Virus record (IMG/VR): IMGVR_UViG_2802429253_000004
DNA: 48,941 bases
Reading direction: 5' to 3' (one strand)
From: a virus
Lineage: Duplodnaviria; Heunggongvirae; Uroviricota; Caudoviricetes
Position 1 is the stretch's first letter. Each line of letters begins with the position of its first letter. The position numbers and the translations under genes were made by a program. The notes below the pieces were generated by a model. It was given only the letters and a program-made list of their open reading frames with translations, was not told the DNA's origin and did no database searches. Of this stretch, positions 122 through 48,816 are shown in pieces.

Positions 122-638
122 GAATTTAGAATTACAACTGGAGGCGCTCAGGCGTTCAGGATGTGACCGGATTTTTGAAGATAAAATATCCGGTGCTAAA
201 TCAAAACGACCTGGACTTGATAAGCTACTGAAGGTGTTACGGCCGGGCGATACGGTTATTGTCTGGAAGCTGGACCGAATGGGGCGTTCTCTGATTCATC
301 TTGTTGATTTACTTAACCATTTTTTATCAAACGACATTGAGTTTATTTCGATTACGGAAGGGATAAAAATTAGCACTTCAATTGGCCGCTTTGCCTACAC
401 GATGCTGAGTGCAGTCGCAGAGATGGAGCGGGAAAATATGATTGAAAGAACGCGTGCAGGATTGGCGGTGGCAAGGGCTAACGGCAGGATAGGAGGACGC
501 CGCTCAAAACTGGCACCAGAGCAATGGGAACAGATCGGAAGGCTTATTGCGAATGGTGTTTCACGTAAGCGGATAGCGATTATCTTCGATGTTACCTTAT
601 CCACGCTTTACCGCAGGTTTCCGGCTGGGAATCATTGA
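84..638 (+). CDS. Serine recombinase, DNA invertase of the Gin/Cin/Hin/Pin family
   Basis: 184 aa; N-terminal YARVSTxDQ catalytic motif, resolvase fold and C-terminal HTH, closely resembling Mu Gin; lies next to an invertible tail-fiber segment. Confidence 0.9.
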   Translation: MQYGYARVSTFDQNLELQLEALRRSGCDRIFEDKISGAKSKRPGLDKLLKVLRPGDTVIVWKLDRMGRSLIHLVDLLNHFLSNDIEFISITEGIKISTSIGRFAYTMLSAVAEMERENMIERTRAGLAVARANGRIGGRRSKLAPEQWEQIGRLIANGVSRKRIAIIFDVTLSTLYRRFPAGNH

Positions 639-768
639 CTGGAGTTAGGCCAGTAGTATGATGCTCGCAAAACGAGATCCAATTTAGATCCTTTTACTGG
701 TGGATTATCGTTCGATTAGTGAGAGACTTCGTGCATGACCGAAAGTGTTGTGGTAGAGTTCTCTTAAA

Positions 769-783: not shown

Positions 784-821
784 TACGATTGTGGGTGTCT
801 GGTTGGAAAACGACCAGATAT

Positions 822-915
822 GGAAACAAAAAGCCCGCAGATAAATCTGCGGGCTTCTTGCGACATCCACGGAAAAACCAACAAACATATCCATGGGCGC
901 CTCGACAACTCCCAT
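822..915 (-). ncRNA. Candidate CopA-like antisense RNA of the repA leader (3' end defined by an intrinsic terminator on the minus strand)
   Basis: Minus-strand hairpin (about 832..856, stem AAGCCCGCAG/CTGCGGGCTT) followed by a U-run (about 821..830), just upstream of the repA start as in IncFII control regions; the 5' end is not defined. Confidence 0.35.
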
Positions 916-951
916 TATACGTTGGTTTTCCGTGGACGCAAGAGCGAACAT

Positions 952-1800
952 ATGGATAGACCAATGCCGTCTCTACGTTCAGCTTACGTTTGTAATTTGT
1001 CGCCGGAGTTCCAGCCTCCAAAGCACCATACGCACAAGCTGCCGCTGGTGTTATCTGATGCTTTACAGCGCATTAATGGTCGTGATCTTACGTGTGAGGT
1101 TGCGTTCTACGTTAATCAACCGTCAGAGCGGAAACGCCGGATAAACGAGCATCGTCGTCGGGCAATTAATGCTGTGATTGCTGCGATTTTGCACCATGTA
1201 AACATCATTTCTAAGCGGGTTCTGGCCAGTGCTGAGGCGTTGGCTGATTTTTGCGGCCTGTCTACCGTATCCGAAGCTGGGAACAAGTCTATAACGCGCT
1301 GTACAAGGGCGTTGTCGCAACTGAAAGAGTTAGGTTTTATTGATTATGAACGTCGCTGGGATCGGGTGAATAAACAGTATTGGCCAGCGAAAATCGAGAT
1401 TCGTGATCAACTGCTGGAAACAGTTGGTATTACTGAACAAGCATGGAGACGTGCGGTTAGCCAGAAACTTAATTACTTCAATGCGAAGAATAGCGAACGG
1501 CTTAAAAAAGCGATAACGGAGGCTGATTATAAGCGTATTGTTATTCAGGAGCAGATGGAGAATGTATGGCGTCAGAGGAAGACGGCCAGAGAGATAAAGG
1601 CAAAACAGAAAGCAGCGGAGAGAGCTGCGCGTCTTGTTCAGGAAAAGGGAGAGGCCGAACTTCGTCACCAAATCACTAGAGAGGTTAGCCAGGAATTTGC
1701 TGATGGCATGTATCCTGGTGCTGACCTTGCATATTTACGCTCCCTCGTTGATCAGCGTTATAACAGGCTAAGAAAGACCTGGACATCACTCCAACATTAA
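952..1800 (+). CDS. repA: Plasmid replication initiator RepA, IncFII (RepFIIA) RepA1-like
   Basis: Recognisable similarity to R100/R1 RepA1 (region LSTVSEAGNKSITRCTRALSQLKELGFIDYE); the ORF is open from 820 but the Met at 952 gives the RepA1-like length (283 aa) and clears the antisense hairpin; start is uncertain. Confidence 0.8.
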   Translation: MDRPMPSLRSAYVCNLSPEFQPPKHHTHKLPLVLSDALQRINGRDLTCEVAFYVNQPSERKRRINEHRRRAINAVIAAILHHVNIISKRVLASAEALADFCGLSTVSEAGNKSITRCTRALSQLKELGFIDYERRWDRVNKQYWPAKIEIRDQLLETVGITEQAWRRAVSQKLNYFNAKNSERLKKAITEADYKRIVIQEQMENVWRQRKTAREIKAKQKAAERAARLVQEKGEAELRHQITREVSQEFADGMYPGADLAYLRSLVDQRYNRLRKTWTSLQH

Positions 1801-6070: not shown

Positions 6071-6096
6071 AGCGCCCAAATCGGGCGCTTTGTTTT
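6071..6096. terminator. Bidirectional intrinsic terminator between convergent genes
   Basis: Stem AGCGCCC/GGGCGCT with a T-rich tail on the plus strand and a U-rich tail on the minus strand. Confidence 0.65.
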
Positions 6097-7237
6097 ATGG
6101 TTTTGCACCTGCGGCCAGTTTATCCGCAGATATTTTTATCAGTTCCTGTAGTGTCCTGGCTGGCAGGTTTGCATCCAGAACGCTGAGTATGCTGTTGTGA
6201 TCAGCCTGGTCGACTACTTTGCCTGTCGGTGGTAGTAGCTTGAGCTGAGGATTCAGGTTTTCGTCAAAGCTGATAAGTGCTCTGGCGTTTCTGAGCAGAT
6301 CAAGAAGTAAGGCTGATATCACATCATCTTTAGTCATTGTTGGTAGATTTAGTGCCGCTTTAGTTTTCTCCGTCGCCTTGTCAAACTCTTTGATTAGTGT
6401 CTTGCGGTAGTTTGGTTCTGTTAATAGCCGATGATGTTCTGTTGCCGTTCGGATAATCTTTGTTTCCTGATACAGTCGGTTGTATAGCATTCGCTCGTAT
6501 TCTGCCTTTAACACGCTGCTGATAGCGTTAAAGGCTTCAATGTAGGCCAGCTTGATATCCTTCACGCCTGGACCGTCGATACTTTCCATGAGCAAGGTAA
6601 ATCCGTCTTTTGTCATGCGATAGATTGTTATTTCGCGGTCGCTTCCTTCCAGCGGTCGTTGCTCTTTAAAGAAATGACGCGCCGCAGCCGTGCGAGGAAT
6701 GCGTAATGCATCGATGGCCATTACGATGGAATTGTTTGTGGTGCTGAATGCTTGGGCAACATCGGCTGAGGTTGTGAGTGGCTCGTTGTTGCACACCTTA
6801 ATGTAATACATCGGTTTGGCATTGAGTGTATCGACAACCTCACGAGCATTGTTTGGCGAGACGGTTACGGTCGCGGCCGTTTGCGCGTTCTGGTTGAAGT
6901 AGCAGTCTTCCAGCCGTTCGAATACATCCCACGCCTGATCGGTTTCGAGCATTTTAGCGTGACGTGCAGCCCCGCGTTCGGTCCAGAGGATGAGTTTTCT
7001 AACGTTATTCGCGATGGTTTGAAAATCTCTTAAAGAGATTTTCAAACTTTGGAGATCTGTACCTTTTACAACTATGAAATGTTTTCCTTCTGTAAACCGG
7101 GACTTATTACGGTGGTGATTTCTGTGAAGACATTCGACGCTACAGCCATATAGTTTGGCAAGCAGCTCCGTGGTGATAACGGGGAGCTGGTTATGCAGGA
7201 TAGGCTGTAGGGTGTTAACGGTCGGAAGCGTTTTCAT
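6095..7237 (-). CDS. Antirepressor-like regulator with ORF6N-type N-terminal domain and Rha domain
   Basis: 380 aa; N-terminal segment ending LWTERGAARHAKMLETDQAWDVFERL, central Rha-like segment ITIYRMTKDGFTLLMESIDGPGVKDIKLAYIEAFNAI. Confidence 0.7.
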   Translation of the reverse strand: MKTLPTVNTLQPILHNQLPVITTELLAKLYGCSVECLHRNHHRNKSRFTEGKHFIVVKGTDLQSLKISLRDFQTIANNVRKLILWTERGAARHAKMLETDQAWDVFERLEDCYFNQNAQTAATVTVSPNNAREVVDTLNAKPMYYIKVCNNEPLTTSADVAQAFSTTNNSIVMAIDALRIPRTAAARHFFKEQRPLEGSDREITIYRMTKDGFTLLMESIDGPGVKDIKLAYIEAFNAISSVLKAEYERMLYNRLYQETKIIRTATEHHRLLTEPNYRKTLIKEFDKATEKTKAALNLPTMTKDDVISALLLDLLRNARALISFDENLNPQLKLLPPTGKVVDQADHNSILSVLDANLPARTLQELIKISADKLAAGAKP

Positions 7238-7425
7238 TTTGCACCTCCCATAACTACTTTGGTTACGAGGGAGATTTTTGCGTCAGAAACAGCGTTATCG
7301 TTGCTGGCGATGCGCATAGCTTCGCGCTCGATGATTTCAGCCAGGCGGAATTTATCGGCGTATGAGGCTTTCTTGAGAAGGATCTTTACGAGGTTGACGT
7401 AATAGTCATGGGGTAGGTTTGTCAT
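7234..7425 (-). CDS. Small protein translationally coupled to the antirepressor gene (positionally Icd-like)
   Basis: 63 aa; its stop overlaps the ant start (ATGA); ribosome-binding site AAGGGA on the minus strand. Confidence 0.45.
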   Translation of the reverse strand: MTNLPHDYYVNLVKILLKKASYADKFRLAEIIEREAMRIASNDNAVSDAKISLVTKVVMGGAK

Positions 7426-7587
7426 TGTGATGATTCCCTTAAAGGTTAAGGATACTCACCACCGTCAGGTTCCAATCATTGGGTGGTGAGACGTGCAGGG
7501 TTGGAACTACCGGACACAATGACGAACCGGCGAGTCTTACGACTCCCCCGCACGCCCCACCATAATTTGGGTGTAGCAGTGCTTTAC

Positions 7588-7612
7588 GCATAAAAAAACC
7601 GCTAACGCGGTA
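7588..7612 (-). terminator. Intrinsic terminator on the minus strand within the leader of the antirepressor operon (3' end of a candidate small RNA or attenuator)
   Basis: Minus-strand hairpin ACCGCG..GCGGT followed by TTTTTTT; mutually exclusive pairing segments upstream (TCTACGG / CCGTAGA / CTACGG at 7626..7663). Confidence 0.4.
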
Positions 7613-7875
7613 TGCGCCATTGTGTCTACGGGGTTCCAATCCCGACCGTAGATTTTGCTACGGCTCGGAAAGTGTCCACCAATGGCGCATTCATGTCAAT
7701 ACGGCGGGATTTTAACAGAGGCAACCACATAGCGTGGGTTTGAATGCAGGGCTTTTAATTTTCTTGATATGCTAAGAACGGGAATGTATAGTTCCTGTAA
7801 GGAACAAATCAGTCCTAAATTGTGATGTTTTGTTAAAGTTGGGAACAAGAAAAAAATTTATTATGGGGATAAAAA

Positions 7876-8415
7876 ATGATTGAACCGTCAAAAAACTCAT
7901 GTTTTTCAACCATTCACCTAATGATCATAAAAGAACTTAGGCTAGAAAGAGGTGTGCATCAAGGGATGCTAGCTCAAGCTGCTGGTAAAACACCGAACGC
8001 ATGGACAAAGATAGAGAACGGGCAGTCTGTATTAACAGTTGACGCACTTTTTGGTGCTTTCACAGCCCTTAATATTACTCCAGTGAATTTCATGTCATTG
8101 GTAGAAAATCTTATTTCCGAATTTAACCGTTATGGTTACCACTTCCATCCAGGAACCATTCCTCTGGAAGAAGATAGTCTTTTGCCTCTGATGCTGCGTT
8201 ACTTTAATAGCAAGGGGTTTGAAGCATTGAGAAATAGGCCATTCGAAAGAATTAGCATAAGCTCAATGGGGTTCTCATTTGGGGGGGGCATCCCTGTTAC
8301 TCCAACTGCTGTAATGTATTGTTGCGATGAAGCATATAGAAATTGGGTCGATAACGGCGCTGATATGGATAATCGAGATTATCTGAAGCCATTAACAGGT
8401 CTTGGACGGTTTTAA
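7876..8415 (+). CDS. XRE-type HTH protein with an uncharacterised C-terminal domain
   Basis: 179 aa; HTH near residues 20-60 (GMLAQAAGKTPNAWTKIENGQS); transcribed divergently from the antirepressor operon. Confidence 0.55.
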   Translation: MIEPSKNSCFSTIHLMIIKELRLERGVHQGMLAQAAGKTPNAWTKIENGQSVLTVDALFGAFTALNITPVNFMSLVENLISEFNRYGYHFHPGTIPLEEDSLLPLMLRYFNSKGFEALRNRPFERISISSMGFSFGGGIPVTPTAVMYCCDEAYRNWVDNGADMDNRDYLKPLTGLGRF

Positions 8416-8834
8416 TGAGTGAAGAAACAAAAAAACCGCCCTATTGAGGACGGTTCTTTCGTGCTGATCGGATTCGCAGTCCTTTCAGCATAACGTCGTT
8501 GTATAAATACAACCACGCAAGCACAAACAGCGTTCTTATTCTTACCTAACTGAATAAAATTGTCCAAATAAATTTGGTTTATTAGAGCACAAAAGCAAGT
8601 GATATTTTGTAATATGCGGTTAAGTCAATGAAAAACAATATTTTTTTATCCCTTCATTATGAAGGGGCGGCGGCGTAACATTACGCGGGGCCTTTTCGCC
8701 GATTCGCACCCGGGCACCGACTTTCAGGAAAGGATTATCCAACCGCCGTACCACGCAGGCACAAACAGCGTGCTTGCTCTCGCGTCATTTTCGTCGGTGG
8801 AGATGCCGTGGAACGGCCTGCGAGGGCCAATACA

Positions 8835-8954
8835 ATGAGGAAATACGTATGTATTTTGATCGTTGTTACTGGAGCTTTGTTTACGCCACATGGGGAGGGT
8901 TGGAAGATTACTGATAACGCTCTGAATGTGACGATAAACATTAGCAGCAAGTAG
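8835..8954 (+). CDS. Candidate 39-aa hydrophobic peptide (MRKYVCILIVVTGALFTPHGEGWKITDNALNVTINISSK)
   Basis: GAGGG ribosome-binding site 8 nt upstream; strong intrinsic terminator immediately downstream; no homolog recognised. Confidence 0.3.
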   Translation: MRKYVCILIVVTGALFTPHGEGWKITDNALNVTINISSK

Positions 8955-8959
8955 CGATT

Positions 8960-8982
8960 AGGCCCCTTCGGGGGCCTTTTTT
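8960..8982 (+). terminator. Strong rho-independent terminator
   Basis: Stem AGGCCCC/GGGGCCT with loop TTCG, then TTTTTT. Confidence 0.8.
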
Positions 8983-10171: not shown

Positions 10172-10277
10172 GATTATATAATTCTATAAATCTATATTTA
10201 TAGAATGAGGTAAGCATAACCAACTTTTTGGCGGATGAAAAGTGTTTTATATAATTATATAAATCTATAATCATATA
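10172..10277. repeat. Two blocks of AT-rich iterons immediately upstream of parA (candidate centromere/operator)
   Basis: Blocks 10172..10207 and 10246..10277 each carry two or three copies of the 15-bp unit in both orientations. Confidence 0.7.
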
Positions 10278-10300
10278 AGCGGGCGTTAGCCCGCTTGCAG

Positions 10301-10675
10301 TCAGAGGTCAGCTATCGTTGATATCAGTTGATTTGCTAGCTGTCGCTGTTTACGTGAGAGGGTTAGAGCAGCTTCTGAGCGGTCGCTAAGAGGGGTGTTT
10401 TCATCGAGAATCATGAGGCATACAGAAATAATAGCCCTGTTATATGCCATCAATGGCTGGCACAGCTTCGATACCGCTGGCACATCGTATTGTAAGGCCG
10501 TTTTGAGGCAGACTTTTTGTTCTGATGCCAGATGAAGGATAGATTCTATCCAGTCGATATCTTTCTCATTATCAATGATTTGGCATAACATACACTCAAT
10601 CGCTATGTTCAACGCTTGGATTTCGATTCCAGCAGTGATCAGAGTTTCGTTTTTATTGGCTGTATGTAATTCCAT
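10301..10675 (-). CDS. Hypothetical protein downstream of cI on the same strand
   Basis: 124-aa ORF; likely co-expressed with the repressor in the lysogenic/plasmid state. Confidence 0.5.
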   Translation of the reverse strand: MELHTANKNETLITAGIEIQALNIAIECMLCQIIDNEKDIDWIESILHLASEQKVCLKTALQYDVPAVSKLCQPLMAYNRAIISVCLMILDENTPLSDRSEAALTLSRKQRQLANQLISTIADL

Positions 10676-10710
10676 GCGTAGCCTCTTTTATACTTTTACA
10701 TGTTGTCAAA

Positions 10711-10725
10711 ACCACAAAATGTGGT
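10711..10725. promoter_or_regulatory. Operator-like palindrome ACCACAAAATGTGGT
   Basis: ACCAC-N5-GTGGT dyad between cI and the downstream ORF. Confidence 0.5.
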
Positions 10726-10767
10726 TTTTTTGAGCGTAGAAATGCACGGCTTTCGCCGTGCTGTGTA

Positions 10768-11424
10768 TCATAACCAGTTGACAACACTAACTACGCGGCC
10801 AAGAACTTTATAACGCTTAAATTCCTCGTTATTCAGATGCTTAGTGTTCATTTCAGCATCCCTTTCGGTTGACAGCATAACAGCATTGTCACCCGGTATG
10901 ACTCTACAGTGCCTCAAAACAACCAGGCCATTTCTGTCTTCAAGGGCATAGATCCCCTCATGAATCTCTGTATCGTCTGTATTAATCAGGACTTGGGAGC
11001 CTGGGGATATTGTTGGTGACATTAACTCATCGTTGCTCTGGAGAACTGACAGAGACGATGGGTTGATGTTCTTGCTTCGTAGAATCTCCTGTTCTATCGC
11101 CAGCACTGGCTTTTCTCCGGCGTGCGATGCTATGTCATTTTTTATAGCTACAAGCCCAGGAATAACAGGAGCGTTAGTATTCTGGGGTGGGAACGGGTTA
11201 TCTGTTAAGCACGCGATATAAGGCGCTGATGCTTTCAGGGCGTGCGCGATTTTCTTGATGGCAGGTATAGATGGTTGTCTTAATCCGGCCTCATAGTTCT
11301 GCAAGGTGCTTAAGCCTATTCCAGTGACTTGCTGGAGATCTCCGGCAGTCATGCCGGATTGTTTCCGTAGAGTCTGAATGCGCAGACCTATTTCTTTCTT
11401 GATGTTCTCGTCGTTGCTTTTCAT
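10768..11424 (-). CDS. CI-like phage repressor (N-terminal HTH, C-terminal S24 LexA-like peptidase domain)
   Basis: 218 aa; HTH at residues about 15-60, C-terminal autopeptidase-like domain; divergent from a cro-like gene. Confidence 0.85.
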   Translation of the reverse strand: MKSNDENIKKEIGLRIQTLRKQSGMTAGDLQQVTGIGLSTLQNYEAGLRQPSIPAIKKIAHALKASAPYIACLTDNPFPPQNTNAPVIPGLVAIKNDIASHAGEKPVLAIEQEILRSKNINPSSLSVLQSNDELMSPTISPGSQVLINTDDTEIHEGIYALEDRNGLVVLRHCRVIPGDNAVMLSTERDAEMNTKHLNNEEFKRYKVLGRVVSVVNWL

Positions 11425-11462
11425 GTCTCATCAATCGTGAATGGTGGGTTATTTATACATTA

Positions 11463-11579
11463 CCACATTTAGTGGTTTTCACATGGTAAGACGAGAGGTG
11501 GACCACAAATAGAAGGTTATTTTTTGTTTCGCCCATTGAAAAACTCACGATATGTGGTTTTAATACCACATATCGTGGT
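11463..11579. promoter_or_regulatory. Divergent cI/cro promoter region with at least two full operators (ACCACATTTAGTGGT at 11463..11477, ACCACATATCGTGGT at 11565..11579) and a half-site
   Basis: Repeated ACCAC-N5-GTGGT dyads in the 175-bp intergenic region; larger palindrome CACGATATGTGGTTTTAATACCACATATCGTG. Confidence 0.6.
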
Positions 11580-11598
11580 TTTAACTGGAGTTCGTTAA

Positions 11599-12093
11599 AT
11601 GACCTTTCAGGAGTGGGTTGACGAAAATGGAGGCCAAATTGGTGTTGCCAGAAAGTTTGGCTTTACGTCATCACTGATTGGTGCCTGGTATCGCTTCGAG
11701 AGATTCCCTCGTGCGGATAACCTGACGCTGCTGGTGGCGTATTCGGAAGGCCGGATTAACGTCCAGCAATGGGCGGCAGATTTTGCCGAACGTCAGCGCC
11801 AGCGTAGCGATGGCACATCGGTTCGGCAGAACAAGATCAAAGGGAATCTCCCTGTTAACTGCTTATCAAGGCTGAAAGCGGTTTTCTCTGAGCTGGGGAT
11901 GCCTGCGGAGCGTTGCAATCTACGCGGTCCGCGATTCATTGCTCGCTGGAAACACTCACACGTAACCGTTTCAGAGGTTCGTGATGCGATTACCGTGCTG
12001 GAGCTTAAGAATAAAGATTCCAGCGATATCGAGCTGATTCATAAGGAGATTAGCAACGCCCGGCGTTCAGCACTTGGGAGGCTTGAGGAATGA
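11599..12093 (+). CDS. Cro/YdaS-like HTH regulator with C-terminal extension (first gene of the early rightward operon)
   Basis: N-terminal segment ENGGQIGVARKFGFTSSLIGAWY resembles Cro/YdaS-type HTH; position opposite cI. Confidence 0.55.
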   Translation: MTFQEWVDENGGQIGVARKFGFTSSLIGAWYRFERFPRADNLTLLVAYSEGRINVQQWAADFAERQRQRSDGTSVRQNKIKGNLPVNCLSRLKAVFSELGMPAERCNLRGPRFIARWKHSHVTVSEVRDAITVLELKNKDSSDIELIHKEISNARRSALGRLEE

Positions 12094-12605
12094 TGATTCT
12101 GGCCTTCTTTGGTGATAATCACCAGATTCAATCGCAGGTGGTGCACTACCTTGATCAAACGATTAAAGGATTTGTTATCGATCATATTGATAACGATAGC
12201 AAACATCTATCTGTAGATCAGAAAATTGGACGTGTGCAGCGACTGGTTGCCAGCCGTAACAGACGTGACACCGTAACAGTAGTCACGGGGATAACGGAGG
12301 TCATGGAGTACCAGATGTTGCTGCATCGTGGAGCTGTTTTCTGCGTTCTTCCTGGCATTCTGCCAGCAATTCTTGCTCGTGGTTTTGTCTCTATTGATGA
12401 GTCGTTTTTATATGTAACCCCAAGCCGTTCCCTTCTGGATACGGAGGCGAAGCGTCGCATTTATATGATGCCGGACGAGGCATTTTCTGAATGTTACCGC
12501 CGTGAAATGAGGTTGGGTAAACGAGAAGTGTCTGTTGTTCGTGATGGCAGGTTTTTAAGAAGCCGCACGGTGAAAAGCACCAGAAATGACGGGGGCCATC
12601 AATGA
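12090..12605 (+). CDS. Hypothetical early-operon protein
   Basis: 171-aa ORF with start overlapping the upstream stop; no motif recognised. Confidence 0.5.
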   Translation: MMILAFFGDNHQIQSQVVHYLDQTIKGFVIDHIDNDSKHLSVDQKIGRVQRLVASRNRRDTVTVVTGITEVMEYQMLLHRGAVFCVLPGILPAILARGFVSIDESFLYVTPSRSLLDTEAKRRIYMMPDEAFSECYRREMRLGKREVSVVRDGRFLRSRTVKSTRNDGGHQ

Positions 12606-12835
12606 GTAGTTATGTTCGCGGTGCTGCGATGCATTGCCAGAATCCCCAATTCTGGCGCTTTCTGACCAGTAAAACAGGGAAGAACGTTTCAAACAGTTCT
12701 GAGGCCTCTGTGATTCTGCGTGAGTTTTGCGGGATCTCATCCCGTAAAGAGCTGGCAAAGAACTACGCGGCCAGAAGCATGTATGTCCAGTTAATCAACG
12801 AGTTCAACCTCTTTATCAATGGTAAGGGGCGCTGA
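12602..12835 (+). CDS. Hypothetical small protein
   Basis: 77-aa ORF, overlapping start and stop within the operon. Confidence 0.4.
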   Translation: MSSYVRGAAMHCQNPQFWRFLTSKTGKNVSNSSEASVILREFCGISSRKELAKNYAARSMYVQLINEFNLFINGKGR

Positions 12836-13239
12836 TGAACGGACGTACACCAACGAAGAAAGAGAAACTTTATATACAAGCGGTGCTCACTCACGTGGGT
12901 TGCATAGCTTGCATTATTGATGGCCGTGAAATTGAGAATCCAGAACTGTGGACGGAGCTGCATCACGATCCTGATTACGGCAGCGTTGATGAGAATTGCC
13001 ACTTCCATAGCTTTGGGTTGTGCGCACCACATCATCGCGGTGTTGTGCCTGGTGGTGGGCGCGTGCCTCCGCATATTGCCGTTCGTCACCCTCCCCTGAG
13101 TAATTGTGCTCGCTTTGTTGAGCGTTATGGCACAGATGAATTTTTGTGTGCGCAGACGTGGGAGCTGTTGCCGCAGTCAGTTAAAGACGAAATTGGGTTT
13201 GATCTTAGTCTTGGTGAAGTACCAGGGGATACCAAATGA
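12835..13239 (+). CDS. Cys/His-rich NinG/YbcO-like protein (putative nuclease)
   Basis: Cys/His pattern GCIACI...HFHSFGLCAPHH; sits in the nin-like region between cro and Q as in lambdoid phages. Confidence 0.4.
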   Translation: MNGRTPTKKEKLYIQAVLTHVGCIACIIDGREIENPELWTELHHDPDYGSVDENCHFHSFGLCAPHHRGVVPGGGRVPPHIAVRHPPLSNCARFVERYGTDEFLCAQTWELLPQSVKDEIGFDLSLGEVPGDTK

Positions 13240-13568
13240 GATATACCGGCTTTCGCAAACCAGCGACCAGGAAAAGCAAATACGGCAATAAAAAAACTGT
13301 TGTCGATGACATCGCTTTTGATAGCAAAAAAGAGGCTGATTACTACTGCGAACTGAAGCTACTGAGAAAAGCTGGCCGCGTTGTGACGTTTCTTATGCAG
13401 GTGCCTTTTCATCTGCCTGGTGGTGTCGTTTATAAACTTGATTTCATGGTGTTTTATGACGATGGGACGATTGATTGTGTCGACACTAAAGGTGTGCGAA
13501 CAGACGTCTACATCATGAAGAAAAAGCAGGTAGAGGCGCTTTATCCCGTCACGATACGGGAGATCTGA
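13236..13568 (+). CDS. DUF1064-like phage protein (conserved KYGNKKT motif)
   Basis: 110 aa; N-terminal RKPATRKSKYGNKKTVVDDIAFDSKKEA signature recalled from phage nin-region proteins. Confidence 0.45.
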   Translation: MRYTGFRKPATRKSKYGNKKTVVDDIAFDSKKEADYYCELKLLRKAGRVVTFLMQVPFHLPGGVVYKLDFMVFYDDGTIDCVDTKGVRTDVYIMKKKQVEALYPVTIREI

Positions 13569-13571
13569 ACA

Positions 13572-13949
13572 GTGAGACGCGATCTGGATAGCTTGTTTGA
13601 GCTATGGGCGCTGTGGGTGCGCAATGGCTGCAACGCCCGTAGCGGTTTCGCGTCGATGTTAGAAATGATGATGGTTACGCGCTGCCAGTTTACCGGAGGG
13701 GGCGGCGCACCAAATGACTCACTGGAAACCAGTATCGAGGGAGCGGTGACGGCCCTCACGGTAGTTGATGAGACTGCGGCGCTGGTTGTCCGAATTGAAT
13801 ACGGGGCGTGGGAGATTCGGGGCCTCGACATAAATGCACCGCATATTGATAAAGCCCACGCCCTTTCTCTTAGTCTCAGACAGTATCGCCGGAAGCTGGC
13901 AAAAGCCAGGACGTATGTTGTCGACTACTTGAAAAAGAGAAGAGAGTGA
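13572..13949 (+). CDS. Putative antitermination protein Q-like late regulator
   Basis: 125 aa; N-terminal LFELWALWVRNGCNARSGFASML resembles small Q-type antiterminators; last gene before a promoter cassette; GTG start. Confidence 0.45.
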   Translation: MRRDLDSLFELWALWVRNGCNARSGFASMLEMMMVTRCQFTGGGGAPNDSLETSIEGAVTALTVVDETAALVVRIEYGAWEIRGLDINAPHIDKAHALSLSLRQYRRKLAKARTYVVDYLKKRRE

Positions 13950-13990
13950 AAGTGTCATTTTGAGCTGTTTTGGTGATTTGTAGGCACCGG

Positions 13991-14118
13991 GAATATCGGA
14001 AATCTATAAATATATAATTATAGATTTATATAAAAAGTGCTTTACAGGTGGGAAAAAATTTCCTAAGGTTATACCCGAAACCGAGCGATACCCGCCCTGG
14101 TTAAACCGGAGAAATCTG
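13991..14118 (+). promoter_or_regulatory. Promoter/leader cassette, copy B
   Basis: Near-identical to 3956..4072 and 20858..20974; directly downstream of the Q-like gene. Confidence 0.6.
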
Positions 14119-15186
14119 ATGAATAAACAAGTAATTATTTCTGACTGGATCAACAACCCTAACAGCCTGTTGAGCACTGATACTGGCTATAGATTACGTC
14201 ATGTTAATGGCCGTATGGTCAAAAGCGATGAGCACGAAACCTTTTTCGTTGTTGAAGACGATGGACGTCTTTATGAGGATGGTCACTCTTATGAATCCCA
14301 AACAGGTTGTATCCCTGCGGAGTTGGTAGACGTAACAGAAAAGCTGCGCAAAGCATGGCTTGAACAGCAGCAGCGCGGAGATGATTACGTAAATACCTAT
14401 CAGGAACGCCAGAACGCGCGTCTTGCCCGATATATTGCTCGTGCAGAAAAAGCTAGAAAAGAAGGTGCGGTGGCGCATAAGCGAGCGCATGAACTGTTGG
14501 ATGTGATCCCGTTAGGCCAGCCGATTTTAGTTGACCATTATAGCGCGAAAGGCCATCGCCGCCGTTTGTCTAAAGCTGATGCGTTATTCAGAAAATCGTT
14601 TGTTGAGTGTGAAAGCAGAGCATCGTACTACGAAAGCAAAGCCGCAGGTGTCGGCCGTAATGGAGTTTCGTCTGATGATCCTGATGCGCTATTTAAGTTG
14701 CTTCGTAAGCTGCAAGGCTGCATGAAGTCACACATCAAAATGAAGGCCGCAAATAAGGCTATTCGCAAATACAAAAAAGACCAATTACAGCAGCTTTCCG
14801 CATTAATTGACCTTGAGTTTACTGAAAGCGAAGCCAAAGAGTTACTCGCCGGAGATTTCTGTGGGCACATTGGCTTTCCTTCATACTCACTGAGTAACAA
14901 TAACGCCGAAATCAAACGCCTACAGAGCCGTATTAAAGAGCTTGAATCGGTCAAGTCTGTAACAGGATCACAGCGCGAAGAATACGACGGCTTTTCTATG
15001 GAGGTAGATCCAGAGGATAACCGCATCCTGTTTTATTTCCCTGGCAAACCAGAGGCAAACATTCGTTCGCTGCTTAAATCACGCGCCTTTAAGTGGAGTC
15101 CAACCCGTAATGCATGGGTTCGCAAGATTACTCCAAACGCCCTGGCTGATGCCCGATATCTGAAAGAATCGCTATTGAAAGCCTGA
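14119..15186 (+). CDS. Hypothetical 355-aa protein, first gene after cassette copy B
   Basis: Long ORF with basic, coiled-coil-like central region; function not recognised. Confidence 0.6.
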   Translation: MNKQVIISDWINNPNSLLSTDTGYRLRHVNGRMVKSDEHETFFVVEDDGRLYEDGHSYESQTGCIPAELVDVTEKLRKAWLEQQQRGDDYVNTYQERQNARLARYIARAEKARKEGAVAHKRAHELLDVIPLGQPILVDHYSAKGHRRRLSKADALFRKSFVECESRASYYESKAAGVGRNGVSSDDPDALFKLLRKLQGCMKSHIKMKAANKAIRKYKKDQLQQLSALIDLEFTESEAKELLAGDFCGHIGFPSYSLSNNNAEIKRLQSRIKELESVKSVTGSQREEYDGFSMEVDPEDNRILFYFPGKPEANIRSLLKSRAFKWSPTRNAWVRKITPNALADARYLKESLLKA

Positions 15187-15242
15187 CAGTAAGCCTACGG
15201 CGGGATGTCTCCCGCCGTATATAGAATTATATATTTATATAA

Positions 15243-15545
15243 ATGTATAAGGACGCCTCGACAATGAAACGCAAAATTATTAACCCCCAAGATGTGATTA
15301 ATTTCCTGACCGATCACCCATGTTCAAAAGTGGACGTAATCGCGGAGCACATTGGTGTGTCGCAGAACTCTATGCGTTGCAGACTGAGAAGCATGGTTGC
15401 CGAAGGACAGATAACAACCAGGAAAATAAATGGTTGCCTGTACTACTCCGCTAAACCGGAATTGCCATTTGGCATGAATCCTAACTCCATGTTGTTTAAC
15501 ACCTTATTAGCCAAAGTTAAGCCGTTGAGAGGGGCTGTGGCATGA
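15243..15545 (+). CDS. Small winged-helix-like DNA-binding protein
   Basis: Segment DVIAEHIGVSQNSMRCRLRSMVAEGQI is HTH-like; start uncertain (15243 or 15264). Confidence 0.45.
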   Translation: MYKDASTMKRKIINPQDVINFLTDHPCSKVDVIAEHIGVSQNSMRCRLRSMVAEGQITTRKINGCLYYSAKPELPFGMNPNSMLFNTLLAKVKPLRGAVA

Positions 15546-15907
15546 GCATCAAAACCCATACCGGAATAATCATCACCATTGATGGTGAGAAAAAAGTGAA
15601 GTTACGCGAAACGCCGACAACCTGGTGTGTTGGTCCGAAAGAAACATATCGCAAGGAAGATGGGCGCCGTTGTGGGTCGCCACTTTCCAGCCGTCGCCTC
15701 CTTTTGAGCACGATAAAACCTATCGGGCAGGTTGAGCAACCAACGACTCCGGTAACGAAGATTTCAGACAAGAGTCTGGCAAACCTGATCGCCGATGCGG
15801 ACAAGGTGCTGGAGCGAAACACCCCCGTTGCAGATGAGGAATGGTGGCAGGATTTCCGAGCCGCAATGCTAGAGCTTCAGGAACGTCGTCGGGAGGAGTT
15901 GAAGTGA
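15542..15907 (+). CDS. Hypothetical protein
   Basis: 121-aa ORF with overlapping start and stop in the operon. Confidence 0.45.
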   Translation: MSIKTHTGIIITIDGEKKVKLRETPTTWCVGPKETYRKEDGRRCGSPLSSRRLLLSTIKPIGQVEQPTTPVTKISDKSLANLIADADKVLERNTPVADEEWWQDFRAAMLELQERRREELK

Positions 15908-16152
15908 GTGGATCAAATTGTCGAATTAATGGCAATCGAATAGAGCCGTGTGCTGCATTGGCAAAGTCTCTTGAGCACGATGCTGAATGCTCAGTAAGAA
16001 AAGGCTTACTGCTATACAAAATCTGGAATGAGAGTTTAACCCGTGGACCTGATTTGGTGATGTTGCGTTCCGGTGAGTTTTCTAAATCACCTATTCGAGT
16101 CTCATTTTGCCCGTTTTGTGGTGAAAGTCTGAAAACGTGGGAGGGAGAGTGA
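15904..16152 (+). CDS. Small Cys-rich (zinc-ribbon-like) protein
   Basis: GTG start overlapping the upstream stop; Cys pairs CxxxxxxxxC and CPFC. Confidence 0.4.
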   Translation: MSGSNCRINGNRIEPCAALAKSLEHDAECSVRKGLLLYKIWNESLTRGPDLVMLRSGEFSKSPIRVSFCPFCGESLKTWEGE

Positions 16153-16163
16153 AAGAGCGCGGC

Positions 16164-16769
16164 ATGATTTTTAACGATGAGATGGTCCGGGCCATCCTCG
16201 AAGGAAGGAAAACGCAGACTCGCCGACCTGTAAAAAATGTCAGGGCCGATAACTGCCTGGTTATCCGTAAACCGACAAAGAAACGCAATGGTGTCTATAC
16301 CCACGTTATGGATGCACCGGAACATGGTTTATGCCCGTTCGGTAACGTTGGTGATCGCATATGGGTACGTGAGACATTCAACGCTTTTTGGCTGGATGAC
16401 GATGTTATTCAGGAAATCAAAGATGGTGTCTCTCTGGCTTCTGAGCTGTGTGATTACAAGGCTGATTACTCAGATAGTAGCAAACCATCTGAGGGCTGGA
16501 CCCCGTCAATTCTCATGCCGAGATGGGCATCGCGAATTTTGCTGGAAATTACCGACGTGCGTGTGGAGCGGCTGCATGACATGAGCGAGGCAGATGCCAA
16601 AGCGGAAGGCGCATCTCCGGCAACGTACAAGATTACGCCGCCGGAAGCTGTTTATCGTGTTGGTTTTGGTGATATCTGGCGCGGTATTTACGGGCAAGAG
16701 AACTGGCTATCTAACCCGTGGGTATGGGTAATTGAGTTTAAACGTATTCAGGGGGCAACCAGTGAGTAA
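16164..16769 (+). CDS. Phage protein, possibly ASCH/PUA-like
   Basis: N-terminal MIFNDEMVRAILEGRKTQTRRPV is a signature recalled from prophage ASCH-like proteins; unverified. Confidence 0.4.
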   Translation: MIFNDEMVRAILEGRKTQTRRPVKNVRADNCLVIRKPTKKRNGVYTHVMDAPEHGLCPFGNVGDRIWVRETFNAFWLDDDVIQEIKDGVSLASELCDYKADYSDSSKPSEGWTPSILMPRWASRILLEITDVRVERLHDMSEADAKAEGASPATYKITPPEAVYRVGFGDIWRGIYGQENWLSNPWVWVIEFKRIQGATSE

Positions 16770-17019
16770 TTCCGCACGGCTACAGCTTGGTTTTTCACCG
16801 CTATCAAAAACCATCGTGTTGGCCAAAATGCGCGATTTAGGTGACGGAACAAAACGCCGTGTAGGCAATGATCGCGGTCGTGATGTAACCAACGAGGCCG
16901 CACAACTCGTTTGGCATCTTGTCATGGCAGAAGGCGGTGAAATCAATTGGGAGCTGGATGATGGTTCTCGCATGGTGTTAAGGGCAGAAAAGCAGGGGGC
17001 AAACGATGAAAAACCGTAA
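16762..17019 (+). CDS. Hypothetical protein
   Basis: GTG start overlapping the upstream stop; 85 aa. Confidence 0.35.
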   Translation: MSNSARLQLGFSPLSKTIVLAKMRDLGDGTKRRVGNDRGRDVTNEAAQLVWHLVMAEGGEINWELDDGSRMVLRAEKQGANDEKP

Positions 17020-17197
17020 AGCAAAGATGCTTATTTCCCGTGTATACAGACGTTGCTATCCCAGCCAGTGGTTGAGAGTTAGCAATCGCCGTGTGGTGTT
17101 GTACTTATATTCTGGAATTGCCAGAGAGGGAGTCAAAGATAAGCGTAGCGCGGCGCAAAACCGCTGGAAAAACTACTTGCGCACTAAAGGAGAGTGA
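17006..17197 (+). CDS. Hypothetical small basic protein
   Basis: 63-aa ORF; weak support. Confidence 0.25.
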   Translation: MKNRKAKMLISRVYRRCYPSQWLRVSNRRVVLYLYSGIAREGVKDKRSAAQNRWKNYLRTKGE

Positions 17198-17255
17198 GGT
17201 GCCTACACTATTCAGGAAGCTACACAATAAAATTAACCCACATAAGGAAACAGAT

Positions 17256-17642
17256 ATGGCAACTATTACCAGAGAAAGCGCAGAGATTAAATCATTCATC
17301 ACTGGCTTTCTGAGCGATGCGGCGCACGATAAACAATCTTCAAACAGTCTGCTTGCTAATGTGTTTCGTATCGCGCTGGCATCGCTGGAAGCAGAGCCGA
17401 TAGCGTGGGAATGCGGTGAAAACATAATCCTGTTTAACCCTGACACAGTTGAAGCATACGCAAAACGTGCGGAGATATCACCTAAACCACTATATGCCGC
17501 GCCGCCAGTTCCGGAAATGCAGGCTGATGTCGCGCAAGCAATTGAAAATCTCAAGCAGAAGTTAGTGGAATGCAATCGCTATAACTACTGCGCAGATGCA
17601 GTTAAGGGCGTAGAGGATGCCTGCCACGCCGCCATGCTTTAG
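17256..17642 (+). CDS. Hypothetical protein
   Basis: 128 aa from the ATG at 17256 with an upstream AAGGAAA ribosome-binding site. Confidence 0.45.
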   Translation: MATITRESAEIKSFITGFLSDAAHDKQSSNSLLANVFRIALASLEAEPIAWECGENIILFNPDTVEAYAKRAEISPKPLYAAPPVPEMQADVAQAIENLKQKLVECNRYNYCADAVKGVEDACHAAML

Positions 17643-17658
17643 GGGAAAGGGAAGTGAT

Positions 17659-17934
17659 ATGGCTACTTTTACCAAAGAGCAATTGATTGCCCATATTCGT
17701 GAACGTAAGGAAGCGCGCCAGAGAATGTTGGATACGGTAACTATTAACCCCGGATTTCGTGAATATCTTGAAAGAGAGCTTGCTACAGATGAAATTGCAC
17801 TGGCATCCCTGGCATCTGCACCTGTTGCATGGCTAGTTGGAGGGCGTTTGTTCACAACTGAGATAGCTGCGGGGATGTATGCTAGTGAGGTGAGGAAAGC
17901 AGTTAAGCCGCTATTCTTTTCTGCACTACTGTGA
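17659..17934 (+). CDS. Hypothetical protein
   Basis: 91 aa from the ATG at 17659 with a GGGAAAGGGAAG ribosome-binding site. Confidence 0.45.
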   Translation: MATFTKEQLIAHIRERKEARQRMLDTVTINPGFREYLERELATDEIALASLASAPVAWLVGGRLFTTEIAAGMYASEVRKAVKPLFFSALL

Positions 17935-23060: not shown

Positions 23061-23684
23061 ATGACAAAACATCTTAATGTGGTTTCTTTACCACTTTCTG
23101 TGTTGATTGGTTATGAAAAGAACGCTCGCACACACTCCGTGGAGCAGGTAGATCAGATTGTTGCCAGCATACAGGAGTACGGATGGACTAATCCGATCCT
23201 GATAGACGAAAACAACGTTGTAATTGCTGGTCATGGTCGAATTGCTGCGGCCACTCAGTTGGGGATGGATGATGTTCCCTGCATTGTTCTGGAAGGGCTA
23301 ACGGAGAATCAGAAGAAGGCATATCGTCTGGCCGACAACCGTATTCCGCTGAATGCTGGTTGGGATGAAGAGTTGTTAAGCGCGGAGCTTGCAGATCTTG
23401 CGGCCGATGATTTTGCTCTGGACTCAATTGGTTTTACTCAGCGCGAACTGGATAACTTATTGAGTGCGGCGGTCTACGATGACACAGAGGGTATGGATAT
23501 CCCATTTGAGAAGGATGAGGCCAAATCAGGCGTAAAAGTTCAGTACCTGTCATTTGGAGGTCATAAAATCCCGGCAACGGATGAGGAAGCGGATCGTTTT
23601 GACTGCGCGGTGTCTCGTTATGTTGATGATAATGGCAGCTATATCGGATTTGTATCCGCATTGCTGGCTGGGGAGGTGTGCTGA
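23061..23684 (+). CDS. ParB N-terminal (ParB/Srx nuclease-like) domain protein
   Basis: Conserved ParB-N segment VIAGHGRIAAATQLGMDDVPCIVL; paralog of 26351..26941. Confidence 0.7.
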   Translation: MTKHLNVVSLPLSVLIGYEKNARTHSVEQVDQIVASIQEYGWTNPILIDENNVVIAGHGRIAAATQLGMDDVPCIVLEGLTENQKKAYRLADNRIPLNAGWDEELLSAELADLAADDFALDSIGFTQRELDNLLSAAVYDDTEGMDIPFEKDEAKSGVKVQYLSFGGHKIPATDEEADRFDCAVSRYVDDNGSYIGFVSALLAGEVC

Positions 23685-46835: not shown

Positions 46836-47369
46836 ATGATGCACTTAAAAAACATTACTGCTGGCAACCCTAAAACAAAAGAGCAATACCAGCTAACGAA
46901 ACAATTTAACATCAAATGGCTTTATACAGAGGATGGAAAAAACTGGTATGAGGAACAAAATAACTTTCAGCCTGATACGTTGAAAATGGTCTATGACCAC
47001 AACGGCGTTATTATTTGTATTGAAAAGGATGTTTCAGCAATTAATCCAGAAGGCGCAAGCGTCGTTGAATTACCTGATATTACAGCAAATCGCCGGGCTG
47101 ATATTTCGGGTAAATGGATGTTCAAAGATGGCGTAGTGATAAAGCGAACTTACACCGAGGAAGAGCAGAGGCAACAAGCGGAAAATGAAAAGCAAAGCCT
47201 GTTGCAACTTGTCAGGGATAAAACCCAGCTATGGGACTCACAGCTACGGCTGGGCATCATTTCCGACGAGAATAAACAAAAATTAACCGAGTGGATGCTC
47301 TACGCGCAGAAAGTCGAATCCACAGACACCTCCAGCCTGCCAGTAACGTTTCCCGAACAACCAGAATGA
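46836..47369 (+). CDS. Tail fiber assembly protein (Tfa/U)
   Basis: 177 aa; Tfa-type N-terminal domain directly after the fiber gene. Confidence 0.8.
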   Translation: MMHLKNITAGNPKTKEQYQLTKQFNIKWLYTEDGKNWYEEQNNFQPDTLKMVYDHNGVIICIEKDVSAINPEGASVVELPDITANRRADISGKWMFKDGVVIKRTYTEEEQRQQAENEKQSLLQLVRDKTQLWDSQLRLGIISDENKQKLTEWMLYAQKVESTDTSSLPVTFPEQPE

Positions 47370-47397
47370 GAGAAGGCCCGCTATCGGGCCTTAATTT

Positions 47398-47925
47398 TTA
47401 CTCTGGTTTTTGTGGCCATTCTGGCTTTGCCGTATCCACGCGGCTGACCAGAACGCTGTAGCGTTCCCATGACTCCAGTCGTGTACGCTCCTCATCTGTT
47501 GCCATATTCAATCTGACAGCGCGTTCCAGTGGCTGGATAACTGATTCAGCTTCGGAAAGTAACGCGGACTTTTGTGATTCAGCCTGTTGTTGCTGTTCGT
47601 CTTCCGTATAAATCCGTTTAACCACAGCTCCATCCTTAAACATCCACTTCCTTGAATCATCGGCACGACGATTAGCTGTTATATCGGGAACCTCAACGAC
47701 GCTAAAACCTTCAGGATTAAGCGTGGAGGCATCTTTAGTGATGGCGACAATAATATTATTTTCGTCGTAAACAATCTTTATTGTGTCTTCCTGAAAATTA
47801 CTTACTTCCTCATACCAGTTTTTATCATCTTCGGACCATAACCATATAACATCAAAATTCTTTGTTAGCTGATATTGTTCTTTTGTTTTTGGATTTCCTG
47901 ATCTGATATTTTTTAAATGCTGCAT
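47398..47925 (-). CDS. Alternative tail fiber assembly protein (Tfa/U')
   Basis: 175 aa; paralog of 46836..47369 on the opposite strand inside the invertible segment. Confidence 0.8.
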
Positions 47926-47928
47926 AAT

Positions 47929-48816
47929 TTATACCTGTGCAACGTTATACCATGTACCATTGATGTATTTCTGAATTGGTCTGAAAATAGCTTCATCATC
48001 GCCATCAACTTCACCAATAATTCTTAATCCGGTAAGTGCGTGTCCGGCAATCTCATAACGCCCGCCGCGTGACATTAATTGAACAACTCGCGTACCAAGC
48101 CGGACATCTCCCACATAGCGAGAGTCAAAATTGCTGTAATTGGATGGGATAACCTGTCCGTGCACATTCAGACCGTGCCCCATAGTAACAAGACCAGTAT
48201 TAAGCGCGATATAGAATGGACGAAGACCATTCCAGCTACCGTACTGGTCACCACTGGCAGTAAATAACAGATACAAGCTGCCACCATCCTGTCGCAGAAT
48301 TGCACCATAATTTCCTGCAATCATCCTTAAAGCATTCTGTGATGTGGTTATCAGTTCCCCAGTCATGGTATCGCCAGCACGATTCCAGTCGCGACGCCAG
48401 CCAGGCGCGTAGGTGTCACCATGATTAATATAAGTAAATTGCGCTTTTGCTGTACCGTTCGTTGCAGTTGTTGGAGTAGTGACGCGAATAGTCATTGCGC
48501 TCTTGGTGCCCATCACTTCAACCACCGAGCCAGCAAGTTGAATATTCCCGCAACCTGTATCTGTAATAATTTTATTATTGGCATAAGACCATGAACCTTT
48601 GCACATCCAGTATGGGTGATTAAATGCCCCCTGAGACTCCAGCCACGCAATAAACTGTGCTGTCGTCCAGTTGCTGCTATCTCCTCCAATATTGATACTT
48701 CCGCTGGCCGCTTTCGCTGCACCAATATTTTTTGTGAAGGTATCTTTTCCTGGAATATCCGCACCGTTCTGGTTTTTCTGCAATGCGCCAGAAGCCTTGT
48801 TTATCGTTTCCTGCAA
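47929..48816 (-). CDS. Alternative tail-fiber variable C-terminal segment (Sv'), expressed only after inversion
   Basis: Open frame begins exactly at the gix core; an LGL-QETINK junction continues the fiber frame after inversion; C-terminus ..YINGTWYNVAQV parallels the plus-strand fiber. Confidence 0.8.
   Translation of the reverse strand: MQETINKASGALQKNQNGADIPGKDTFTKNIGAAKAASGSINIGGDSSNWTTAQFIAWLESQGAFNHPYWMCKGSWSYANNKIITDTGCGNIQLAGSVVEVMGTKSAMTIRVTTPTTATNGTAKAQFTYINHGDTYAPGWRRDWNRAGDTMTGELITTSQNALRMIAGNYGAILRQDGGSLYLLFTASGDQYGSWNGLRPFYIALNTGLVTMGHGLNVHGQVIPSNYSNFDSRYVGDVRLGTRVVQLMSRGGRYEIAGHALTGLRIIGEVDGDDEAIFRPIQKYINGTWYNVAQV

Follow-up and report, generated by a model that had tools for sequence, protein, structure and literature searches.

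Putative CI-repressor operators in the immunity, replication and anti-repressor regions of a circular phage-plasmid

The DNA analysed here (the window, 48,941 nucleotides; IMG/VR record IMGVR_UViG_2802429253_000004, Caudoviricetes) is a circular phage-plasmid of ~49 kb, as judged from an IncFII-type RepA and a ParA that occur together with lambda-type terminase and capsid genes. The dyad ACCAC-N5-GTGGT recurs around its CI-like repressor gene (10768-11424, minus strand), upstream of repA and, in weaker form, at an anti-repressor operon. These dyads are probably the operators of the CI-like repressor. Support for this reading comes from their enrichment, location, pattern of conservation and overlap with predicted promoters, from the near-invariant helix-turn-helix (HTH) of CI, and from a deep relative, L141, that retains the same arrangement.

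Distribution and conservation of the dyads

The exact dyad ACCACNNNNNGTGGT occurs four times in the 48,941 bases (769-783, 10711-10725, 11462-11476 and 11565-11579), against a mean of 0.01 in shuffled sequences, none of which (0/100) reaches four. Eight dyads are observed when up to one mismatch is allowed, where 0.61 are expected. With up to two mismatches the excess becomes marginal (21 against 13 expected, and six of the 100 shuffles reach 21), so that weaker sites call for separate evidence. Such evidence exists for three (11544-11558, 11502-11516 and 7724-7738), bringing the total to seven sites. All seven lie outside the open reading frames (ORFs) taken as genes, and five of them flank cI. 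Pooling 25 exact sites yields a longer consensus of ~21 bp, A-W-W-ACCAC-R-WWW-Y-GTGGT-W-W-T. A degenerate dyad pair at 23069-23104, which also shows a 21-bp spacing, was set aside as probably due to chance; it falls within a ParB-like ORF, the PHROG match of which begins at residue 1.

The first-pass annotation had recognised part of this set. The genome-wide pattern search returned its dyads at 10711-10725, 11565-11579 and 769-783 at exactly those coordinates, while the one it gave as 11463-11477 is real but one base off, the true position being 11462-11476. The half-site that it noted near 11500 is the ACCAC at 11502-11506, which belongs to an element, ACCAC-N5-GRAGG (11502-11516), conserved in relatives. 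Its idea of repressor operators on both sides of cI is supported by location, conservation and promoter overlap; the list, however, was incomplete, since there are seven sites and these include one at the anti-repressor operon. The genome-wide dyad search that it had suggested to define the full regulon, once run, added 11544-11558 and 7724-7738.

The sites, genes and predicted promoters around cI are as follows.

10711-10725, no strand: O_L, exact dyad ACCACAAAATGTGGT, flanked by the cI terminator and the next gene leftward (10301-10675)
10744-10761, minus strand: cI terminator hairpin, GCACGGC-GAAA-GCCGTGC
10768-11424, minus strand: cI-like repressor gene, encoding an N-terminal HTH_3 and a C-terminal S24-like domain
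11462-11476, no strand: O4, exact dyad ACCACATTTAGTGGT, 38 bp upstream of the cI start codon; 10/10 half-site columns invariant in eight lineages
11502-11516, no strand: O3, non-canonical ACCACAAATAGAAGG (ACCAC-N5-GRAGG, with GAAGG in the window); 9/10 "half-site" columns invariant in eight lineages
11536-11541, plus strand: predicted -35 of the rightward early promoter, TTGAAA (TTGAAA, TTGATA or TTGCTT in relatives, TTGATG in L141)
11544-11558, no strand: O2, degenerate dyad CTCACGATATGTGGT, CCCAC-N5-GTGGT in most relatives; 8/10 half-site columns invariant
11559-11564, plus strand: -10 predicted for the rightward promoter, TTTAAT, with O2 and O1 directly on either side (relatives: TTTAAT or TTAAAT; L141: TATGTT)
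11565-11579, no strand: O1, exact dyad ACCACATATCGTGGT, at about -6 to +9 of the rightward promoter; 9/10 half-site columns invariant
11599-12093, plus strand: cro-position gene that opens the rightward operon; family-specific product of 164 amino acids, PHROG 7452, function unknown

Conservation was assessed in eight loci from Citrobacter, Klebsiella aerogenes, Yokenella, Salmonella and two read-set assemblies, whose CI proteins are 60-66% identical to that of the window and in all of which the gene order around cI is the same. The cI/cro intergenic alignment spans eight lineages, with DNA 64-74% identical between clades. Its invariant columns are concentrated in the half-sites (36/40), as against 4/20 in the spacers and 31/119 in the remainder (Fisher p = 8.6e-14): site position and half-site sequence are kept, and spacers and flanks drift. 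Outside this region, O_L is an exact dyad in 8/8 relative loci with varying spacers, and the repA site (O_rep) is exact and at the same position in 4/4 relative loci that reach repA, again with different spacers. Deviations in the arms (CCCAC, GTGGG, GAAGG, GTGAT) are never compensated by the opposite arm, which argues against selection for a hairpin. Invariant arms around a free, AT-rich centre are what would be expected of sites for a dimeric HTH protein.

The association extends to deeper branches. Scanning IMG/VR with the CI alignment gave deeper relatives, at 29-32% identity, that keep the motif STLQNYEAG and whose CI genes adjoin a gene starting with MTFQEWV, as does the gene in the cro position of the window. 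In L141, where CI is 32% identical, the intergenic region of ~130 bp contains two one-mismatch dyads, and the rest of the 6.6-kb locus contains none. The dyads are laid out as TTGATG, 2 nucleotides, ACCCCAAATTGTGGT, TATGTT and a GTGGT half-site, in parallel to TTGAAA, AA, O2, TTTAAT and O1 in the window. L142-L144 hold more degenerate elements (ACYAC-N5-GNGNT). L141-L144 are IMG/VR contigs of 16-47 kb that represent a deeper branch of the module formed by CI and the cro-position gene, with no close relative in the phage collection.

The sites are closely interlocked with the predicted promoters. In the rightward promoter (TTGAAA-17-TTTAAT), O2 and a 2-nucleotide gap occupy the entire 17-bp spacer. 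Measured between centres, O1 and O2 are 21 bp apart, O2 and O3 42 bp, and O3 and O4 40 bp, so that, relative to O2, the centres of O3 and O4 are displaced leftward by 42 and 82 bp. Because this spacing places the four sites roughly on one helical face, it suggests cooperative binding. O4 overlaps the spacer and -35 region of a candidate cI promoter whose -10 would be TATAAA (11457-11452); it ends 4 nucleotides before this TATA-rich hexamer on the cI strand, for which relatives have TATTAT or TATTAA. Behind the Shine-Dalgarno-like GAAGG of O3 there is a small ORF, which was considered and rejected, being not conserved in relatives. In the lineage of the window only, the spacers of O2 and O1 are reverse-complementary, which creates a 34-bp palindrome with perfect arms (11545-11578).

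On the other side of cI, relatives retain the terminator hairpin that separates the gene from O_L; their copies show a single compensatory change (GCGC...GCGC in L010) and a longer T-run. The leftward gene beyond O_L (10301-10675) encodes a protein of 124 amino acids of unknown function, and inspection of the sequence near O_L gave no convincing promoter. It is possible that O_L takes part in looping to the right-hand sites or, alternatively, in local repression of the leftward gene.

The repressor and the rival explanations

CI matches the Pfam family HTH_3 with an E-value of 4.5e-11 and Peptidase_S24 at 0.0018, the latter under Pfam's cut-off, and it matches PHROG 4 ("transcriptional repressor") over residues 4-217 (9.6e-27). 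Among homologs of 60-66% identity, residues 9-49, which form the HTH, are nearly invariant and include the presumed recognition helix GLSTLQNYEAGLR; differences are mostly located in the linker and in the C-terminal domain. The C-terminal sequence GRVVSVVNWL can be aligned with the C-terminus of LexA. At the position of LexA Ser119 and lambda Ser149, however, CI has Leu134, invariant in homologs, within a motif DELM(S/A)PT in place of G(D/N)SM, and there is no Lys at the aligned position. The protein thus appears to be a CI without the Ser/Lys self-cleavage pair.

As a prophage repressor, CI would set the two HTH units of a dimer on half-sites one helical turn apart. Bound to O2, in the promoter spacer, and to O1, at the start site, it would block RNA polymerase and silence the lytic operon. 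Adjacent to cI, O4 would most likely serve negative autoregulation if TATAAA is the cI -10; unlike in lambda, there is no basis to infer positive autoregulation.

Could another factor read the same dyads? The protein from the cro position (11599-12093) is adjacent to the sites and as well conserved as CI, it is present in every relative and in the deep relatives, and its gene is transcribed divergently from the same region. Cro and CI of lambda, moreover, share operators. It could therefore be a binder or co-binder, and to this extent it weighs against assigning the sites to CI. It is 72-76% identical in relatives, yet no DNA-binding domain is demonstrable in it: there is no match in Pfam, NCBIfam or the PDB, and an AlphaFold2 model built from 11 sequences is helical, with a mean confidence score (pLDDT) of 56 that is too low for a fold search. 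Nor should a lytic repressor require the sites at repA and ant. In phiKO2 and PY54, Cro binds one operator only and the prophage repressor binds all (PMC4997575), which again speaks against this rival. Another HTH protein, encoded near the anti-repressor site (7876-8415), was rejected as the binder, since the relative loci that retain the dyads lack a homolog of it. Overall it is unlikely that the cro-position protein, or another conserved factor encoded on the element, is the main or sole binder of the dyads in place of CI.

The dyads might instead act as RNA or DNA hairpins, that is, as small terminators, attenuators or cruciforms. A T-run follows each dyad, a scanner flags 11545-11578 as terminator-like on both strands, and the 34-nucleotide palindrome folds as RNA at -24.6 kcal/mol (z = -7.8). 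Single dyads, by contrast, fold weakly (-5.6 to -9.3 kcal/mol), and the long palindrome depends on a complementarity of the O2 and O1 spacers that is absent in relatives. The arms keep their sequence and not merely their ability to pair, their deviations being uncompensated, and several sites lie in promoter spacers or -35 regions and hence would not be transcribed. All this makes a hairpin function very improbable. Much the same has to be said of a role in plasmid maintenance through RepA, a ParB-type protein or some host factor, for instance a nucleoid protein. In its favour, one site stands in front of repA and another is two genes upstream of parA, but five of the seven surround cI and overlap the early promoter, and the pattern of sites tracks the CI/cro module even in L141. 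Chance repeats or a recent duplication without function, for which nothing speaks beyond the shortness of the motif, are effectively refuted by the shuffles, not one of which reached four exact matches, and by the retention of site position and sequence alongside CI proteins 60-66% and even 32% identical.

Operators of the CI-like repressor thus remain the preferred reading, and several points have to be set against it. CI is tied to the sites by their location and by conservation of the two together. The promoter positions were read by eye from the sequence, and a consensus scanner did not call the rightward promoter, whose -10 has no A at position 2, which accounts for the miss; doubt attaches to the cI promoter, the least certain assignment, and to any promoter at O_L. 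L145-L147, short HTH proteins on unrelated contigs, share TLQNYEAG, although the preceding residues differ, and have no ACCAC dyads, so that the helix motif by itself does not predict the site. The anti-repressor site is missing in L003, L004 and L009. As to the Ser/Lys pair, its apparent absence is read from an alignment with LexA and lambda CI in which the Lys column is poorly aligned.

Putative operators at repA and at the anti-repressor operon

The first-pass annotation had the same type of dyad upstream of repA, and an exact copy is indeed found there. The features of this region are as follows.

635-662, plus strand: sigma-70-like promoter after hin, TTGACT-16-TATGAT, with 10/12 matches in the promoter scan
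751-759, plus strand: predicted proximal repA promoter, extended -10 TGgTAGAGT, read by eye
769-783, no strand: O_rep, exact dyad ACCACGTAACGTGGT, at about +4 to +18 of the predicted proximal promoter
820-945, minus strand: predicted CopA-like antisense RNA of the repA leader, with a long stem-loop, a terminator hairpin and a U-run
952-1800, plus strand: repA, IncFII RepA family (Pfam IncFII_repA, PF02387, E 1.9e-44, 152.6 bits)

The start of repA is probably near 952 and not at 820, because the family matches begin near there: the IncFII_repA match starts at residue 9 of the protein initiated at 952, and the PHROG match at residue 54 of the ORF initiated at 820. The dyad would then precede a structured leader of ~170 nucleotides. 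The TGnTAGAGT of the proximal promoter is invariant in all five aligned sequences, which represent three diverged lineages. The upstream promoter, kept in relatives as TTGACT...TATCAT, is the stronger of the two, and its transcripts would cross the repA operator. On the antisense strand of 820-945, RNAalifold gives 39 pairs, three of them with compensatory changes; no Rfam family reaches threshold for this RNA, and there is no Rfam match to CopA.

This layout recalls the IncFII plasmids R1 and R100, with which the window shares an IncFII-family RepA, a structured leader with a predicted antisense RNA, and an upstream promoter followed by a proximal one that has a repressor dyad beside it. It differs from them in that the window has no ORF in the copB position, the ~130 bp between hin and the dyad leaving no room for one, and in that the dyad matches the motif of the phage repressor. 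By analogy, CI appears to occupy the place of CopB, and at O_rep it would restrain transcription of the IncFII-type repA.

Two further observations concern this region. Paired GATC sites ~10-12 bp apart (GAGATCCAATTTAGATCC) lie at 673-690, between the upstream promoter and the repA operator, and are kept in L003, L004, L005 and L008; they could make repA transcription sensitive to Dam or SeqA. Gene starts seem to be mis-set in places: the ORF 820-1800 over-extends repA, and the ParB-like gene starts in the public record ~57 bp downstream of 23061, whereas its PHROG match begins at residue 1 of the ORF that starts at 23061.

The remaining site lies at an operon of the P1/P7 c4/ant type, which reads leftward.

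6095-7237, minus strand: anti-repressor-like gene (ant), 380 amino acids, ORF6N and Phage_pRha domains
7234-7425, minus strand: ORF of 63 amino acids between the c4-like RNA and ant, 90-94% identical in L003, L005, L007 and L008
7479-7567, minus strand: C4 antisense RNA (P1/P7 immI type), Rfam RF01695 at 77.8 bits (gathering score 45)
7592-7677, minus strand: isrK-like RNA and c4 a1/b1 target region, RF01394 at 67.7 bits (gathering score 50) and RF03163 at 38.8 bits, below threshold
7708-7716, minus strand: predicted promoter of the c4/ant operon, extended -10 TGtTAAAAT
7724-7738, no strand: O_ant, one-mismatch dyad, on the minus strand CCCACGCTATGTGGT, at about -37 to -23 of the predicted ant-operon promoter

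In L005, L007 and L008 the position of O_ant reads ACCACAATG(C/T)GTGAT, a one-mismatch dyad, and that of the promoter TGgTAGATT. The 63-residue ORF holds the place that icd has in P1. Bound at O_ant, over the -35 region, CI would control the operon of the c4 RNA and the anti-repressor. The only match to a LexA box in the window, at chance level, is inside the structural region, and none is near ant. Given this, and a CI that seems to be without the Ser/Lys pair, induction would probably proceed through the anti-repressor and not through RecA-stimulated cleavage. A P1/P7-type immI module (7479-7677, minus strand) is set within a lambda-like immunity context. Between the HTH gene 7876-8415 and the par genes lies a full-length match to ryfA RNA (8686-8982, plus strand; 123.9 bits, gathering score 80, E 7.5e-32).

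Taken together, these sites raise the possibility that a non-cleavable CI has taken over the role of CopB, that the same operator gates the c4/ant operon, and that the plasmid replicon doubles as the lytic replicon. We hold this joint reading tentatively, as somewhat more doubtful than probable. It fits with the early-region ORFs scanned, among which no replication initiator or helicase is recognisable. Were it true, inactivation of CI by Ant would at once free the early genes and raise repA expression, leading to runaway replication, and it would also reinforce expression of the anti-repressor in a feed-forward loop. The most interesting point of the system would be control by CI of an IncFII-type repA that also makes the plasmid replicon the lytic one.

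Scanning of the rightward early region (12090-17700) gave matches to a Ref-like nuclease, DUF1064 and DUF3560, the last with a partial match to a "primase" PHROG; several small ORFs of this region were outside that scan.

Known systems and the distribution of the element

In its logic the system is closest to the CB repressors of N15 and phiKO2, a likeness in working and not in family membership. Induction of N15 depends on a separate anti-repressor locus. The CB repressors of N15 and phiKO2 are without the Ser/Lys pair, and anti-repressor induction is reported for repressors of this kind; they bind three operators at OR and two at OL, the latter at the repA promoter, where binding lowers copy number (PMC4997575). 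The window shares with these phages the phage-plasmid lifestyle, a CI-type repressor apparently without the Ser/Lys pair, several operators between the repressor gene and cro, and a prophage-repressor operator at the repA promoter, predicted from sequence in the case of 769-783. In contrast, N15 and phiKO2 are linear telomere phages, whereas the window is a circular, myovirus-type element with an IncFII-type RepA and an antisense-RNA leader. Its repA lies 10 kb from cI and has one operator where theirs has two, its anti-repressor module is P1-like (c4/ant), and its operator is ACCAC-N5-GTGGT, that of CB being of a 16-bp T-A-N10-T-A type (PMC4997575). A tblastn search with CI (E <= 1e-5) listed no telomere phage among the best 40 matches; no Escherichia record appeared in the organism tally at that threshold, from which it follows that N15 was not matched.

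With lambda the window shares divergent cI and cro-position genes, multiple dyad operators that overlap (predicted) promoters, a repressor with an N-terminal HTH and a C-terminal S24 fold, and a distal site beyond cI that could support looping. Unlike that of lambda, its CI is seemingly without the catalytic Ser and Lys, which makes RecA-mediated cleavage unlikely. The operators differ too: they are 21, 42 and 40 bp apart, where those of lambda are adjacent 17-mers, a single O_L site stands in place of OL1-3, and there are additional operators at repA and ant.

In P1, a single repressor, C1, acts at operators scattered over the genome, among them those at the promoter of the c4/anti-repressor operon and at a replication function; C1 is not of the HTH_XRE/S24 type and binds an asymmetric 17-bp site. 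The window resembles P1 as a plasmid prophage with scattered operators and with a C4 RNA, above the Rfam threshold, upstream of a 63-residue ORF and an ORF6N/pRha protein. It differs in having a lambda-like repressor and palindromic sites, P1 C1 belonging to another family. Beside N15 and phiKO2, the element would be a second, unrelated example of a prophage repressor wired directly to a plasmid replication initiator, so that the principle itself is not new.

The element is common, and the annotation of its immunity genes is no more than generic. Region 10200-12700 shows 99.2-99.6% identity to the Yersinia pestis myoviruses vB_YpM_39, vB_YpM_41 and vB_YpM_44, whose records are circular and ~49 kb long and in which the genes matching this region are all labelled "hypothetical protein". 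At least 58 PLSDB plasmids, 46-51 kb in size, encode a CI that is at least 95% identical, as do three Yersinia pestis phages; the plasmids are mostly of Escherichia origin, many were obtained from clinical isolates, and the protein is annotated on them just as a "helix-turn-helix domain-containing protein". The operator motif and the seven-site regulon provide testable handles on immunity groups, copy-number control and induction in this phage-plasmid family. A search for literature on its regulation or immunity region found no paper, and one for ACCAC/GTGGT as a repressor operator had only His-tag primers as its top match, with no phage immunity repressor among the other titles listed. Three candidate names for the family proved unrelated: pTZ20_1P is P1-like, pSLy3 is related to SSU5 and ~100 kb long, and vB_YpM_HQ103 is a 32-kb Peduoviridae phage.

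Further relatives were sought in several ways. The CI alignment found none among GTDB species-representative genomes. Scanning IMG/VR for the 16-mer GTGGTTTWAATACCAC returned 120 loci, of which 112 were chance matches and the eight with CI all came from clades already sampled. RepA relatives without cI were not found at a useful distance, RepA identity falling from >80% directly to ~36%. In its terminase and capsid genes, the nearest named relatives of the window are Vibrio phages of the X29 group, with 63-65% identity in the terminase.

The gene content of the window, besides the IncFII-family RepA and ParA, includes a HigB-type toxin gene (higB2 in the phage record) and a Hin-type invertase. 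Base composition is skewed, with 25.0% G against 19.4% C on the plus strand, which fits with most long ORFs being on that strand. The invertase gene (84-638) lies at one end of the window, and ORFs of the opposite strand (47398-47925 and 47929-48816) at the other (46836-48816). Since the element is circular, the placement of hin and these opposite-strand ORFs at the two window ends suggests an invertible tail-fibre (host-range) segment like those of Mu and P1; in relatives, hin is flanked by tail-fibre or tail-fibre-assembly domains.

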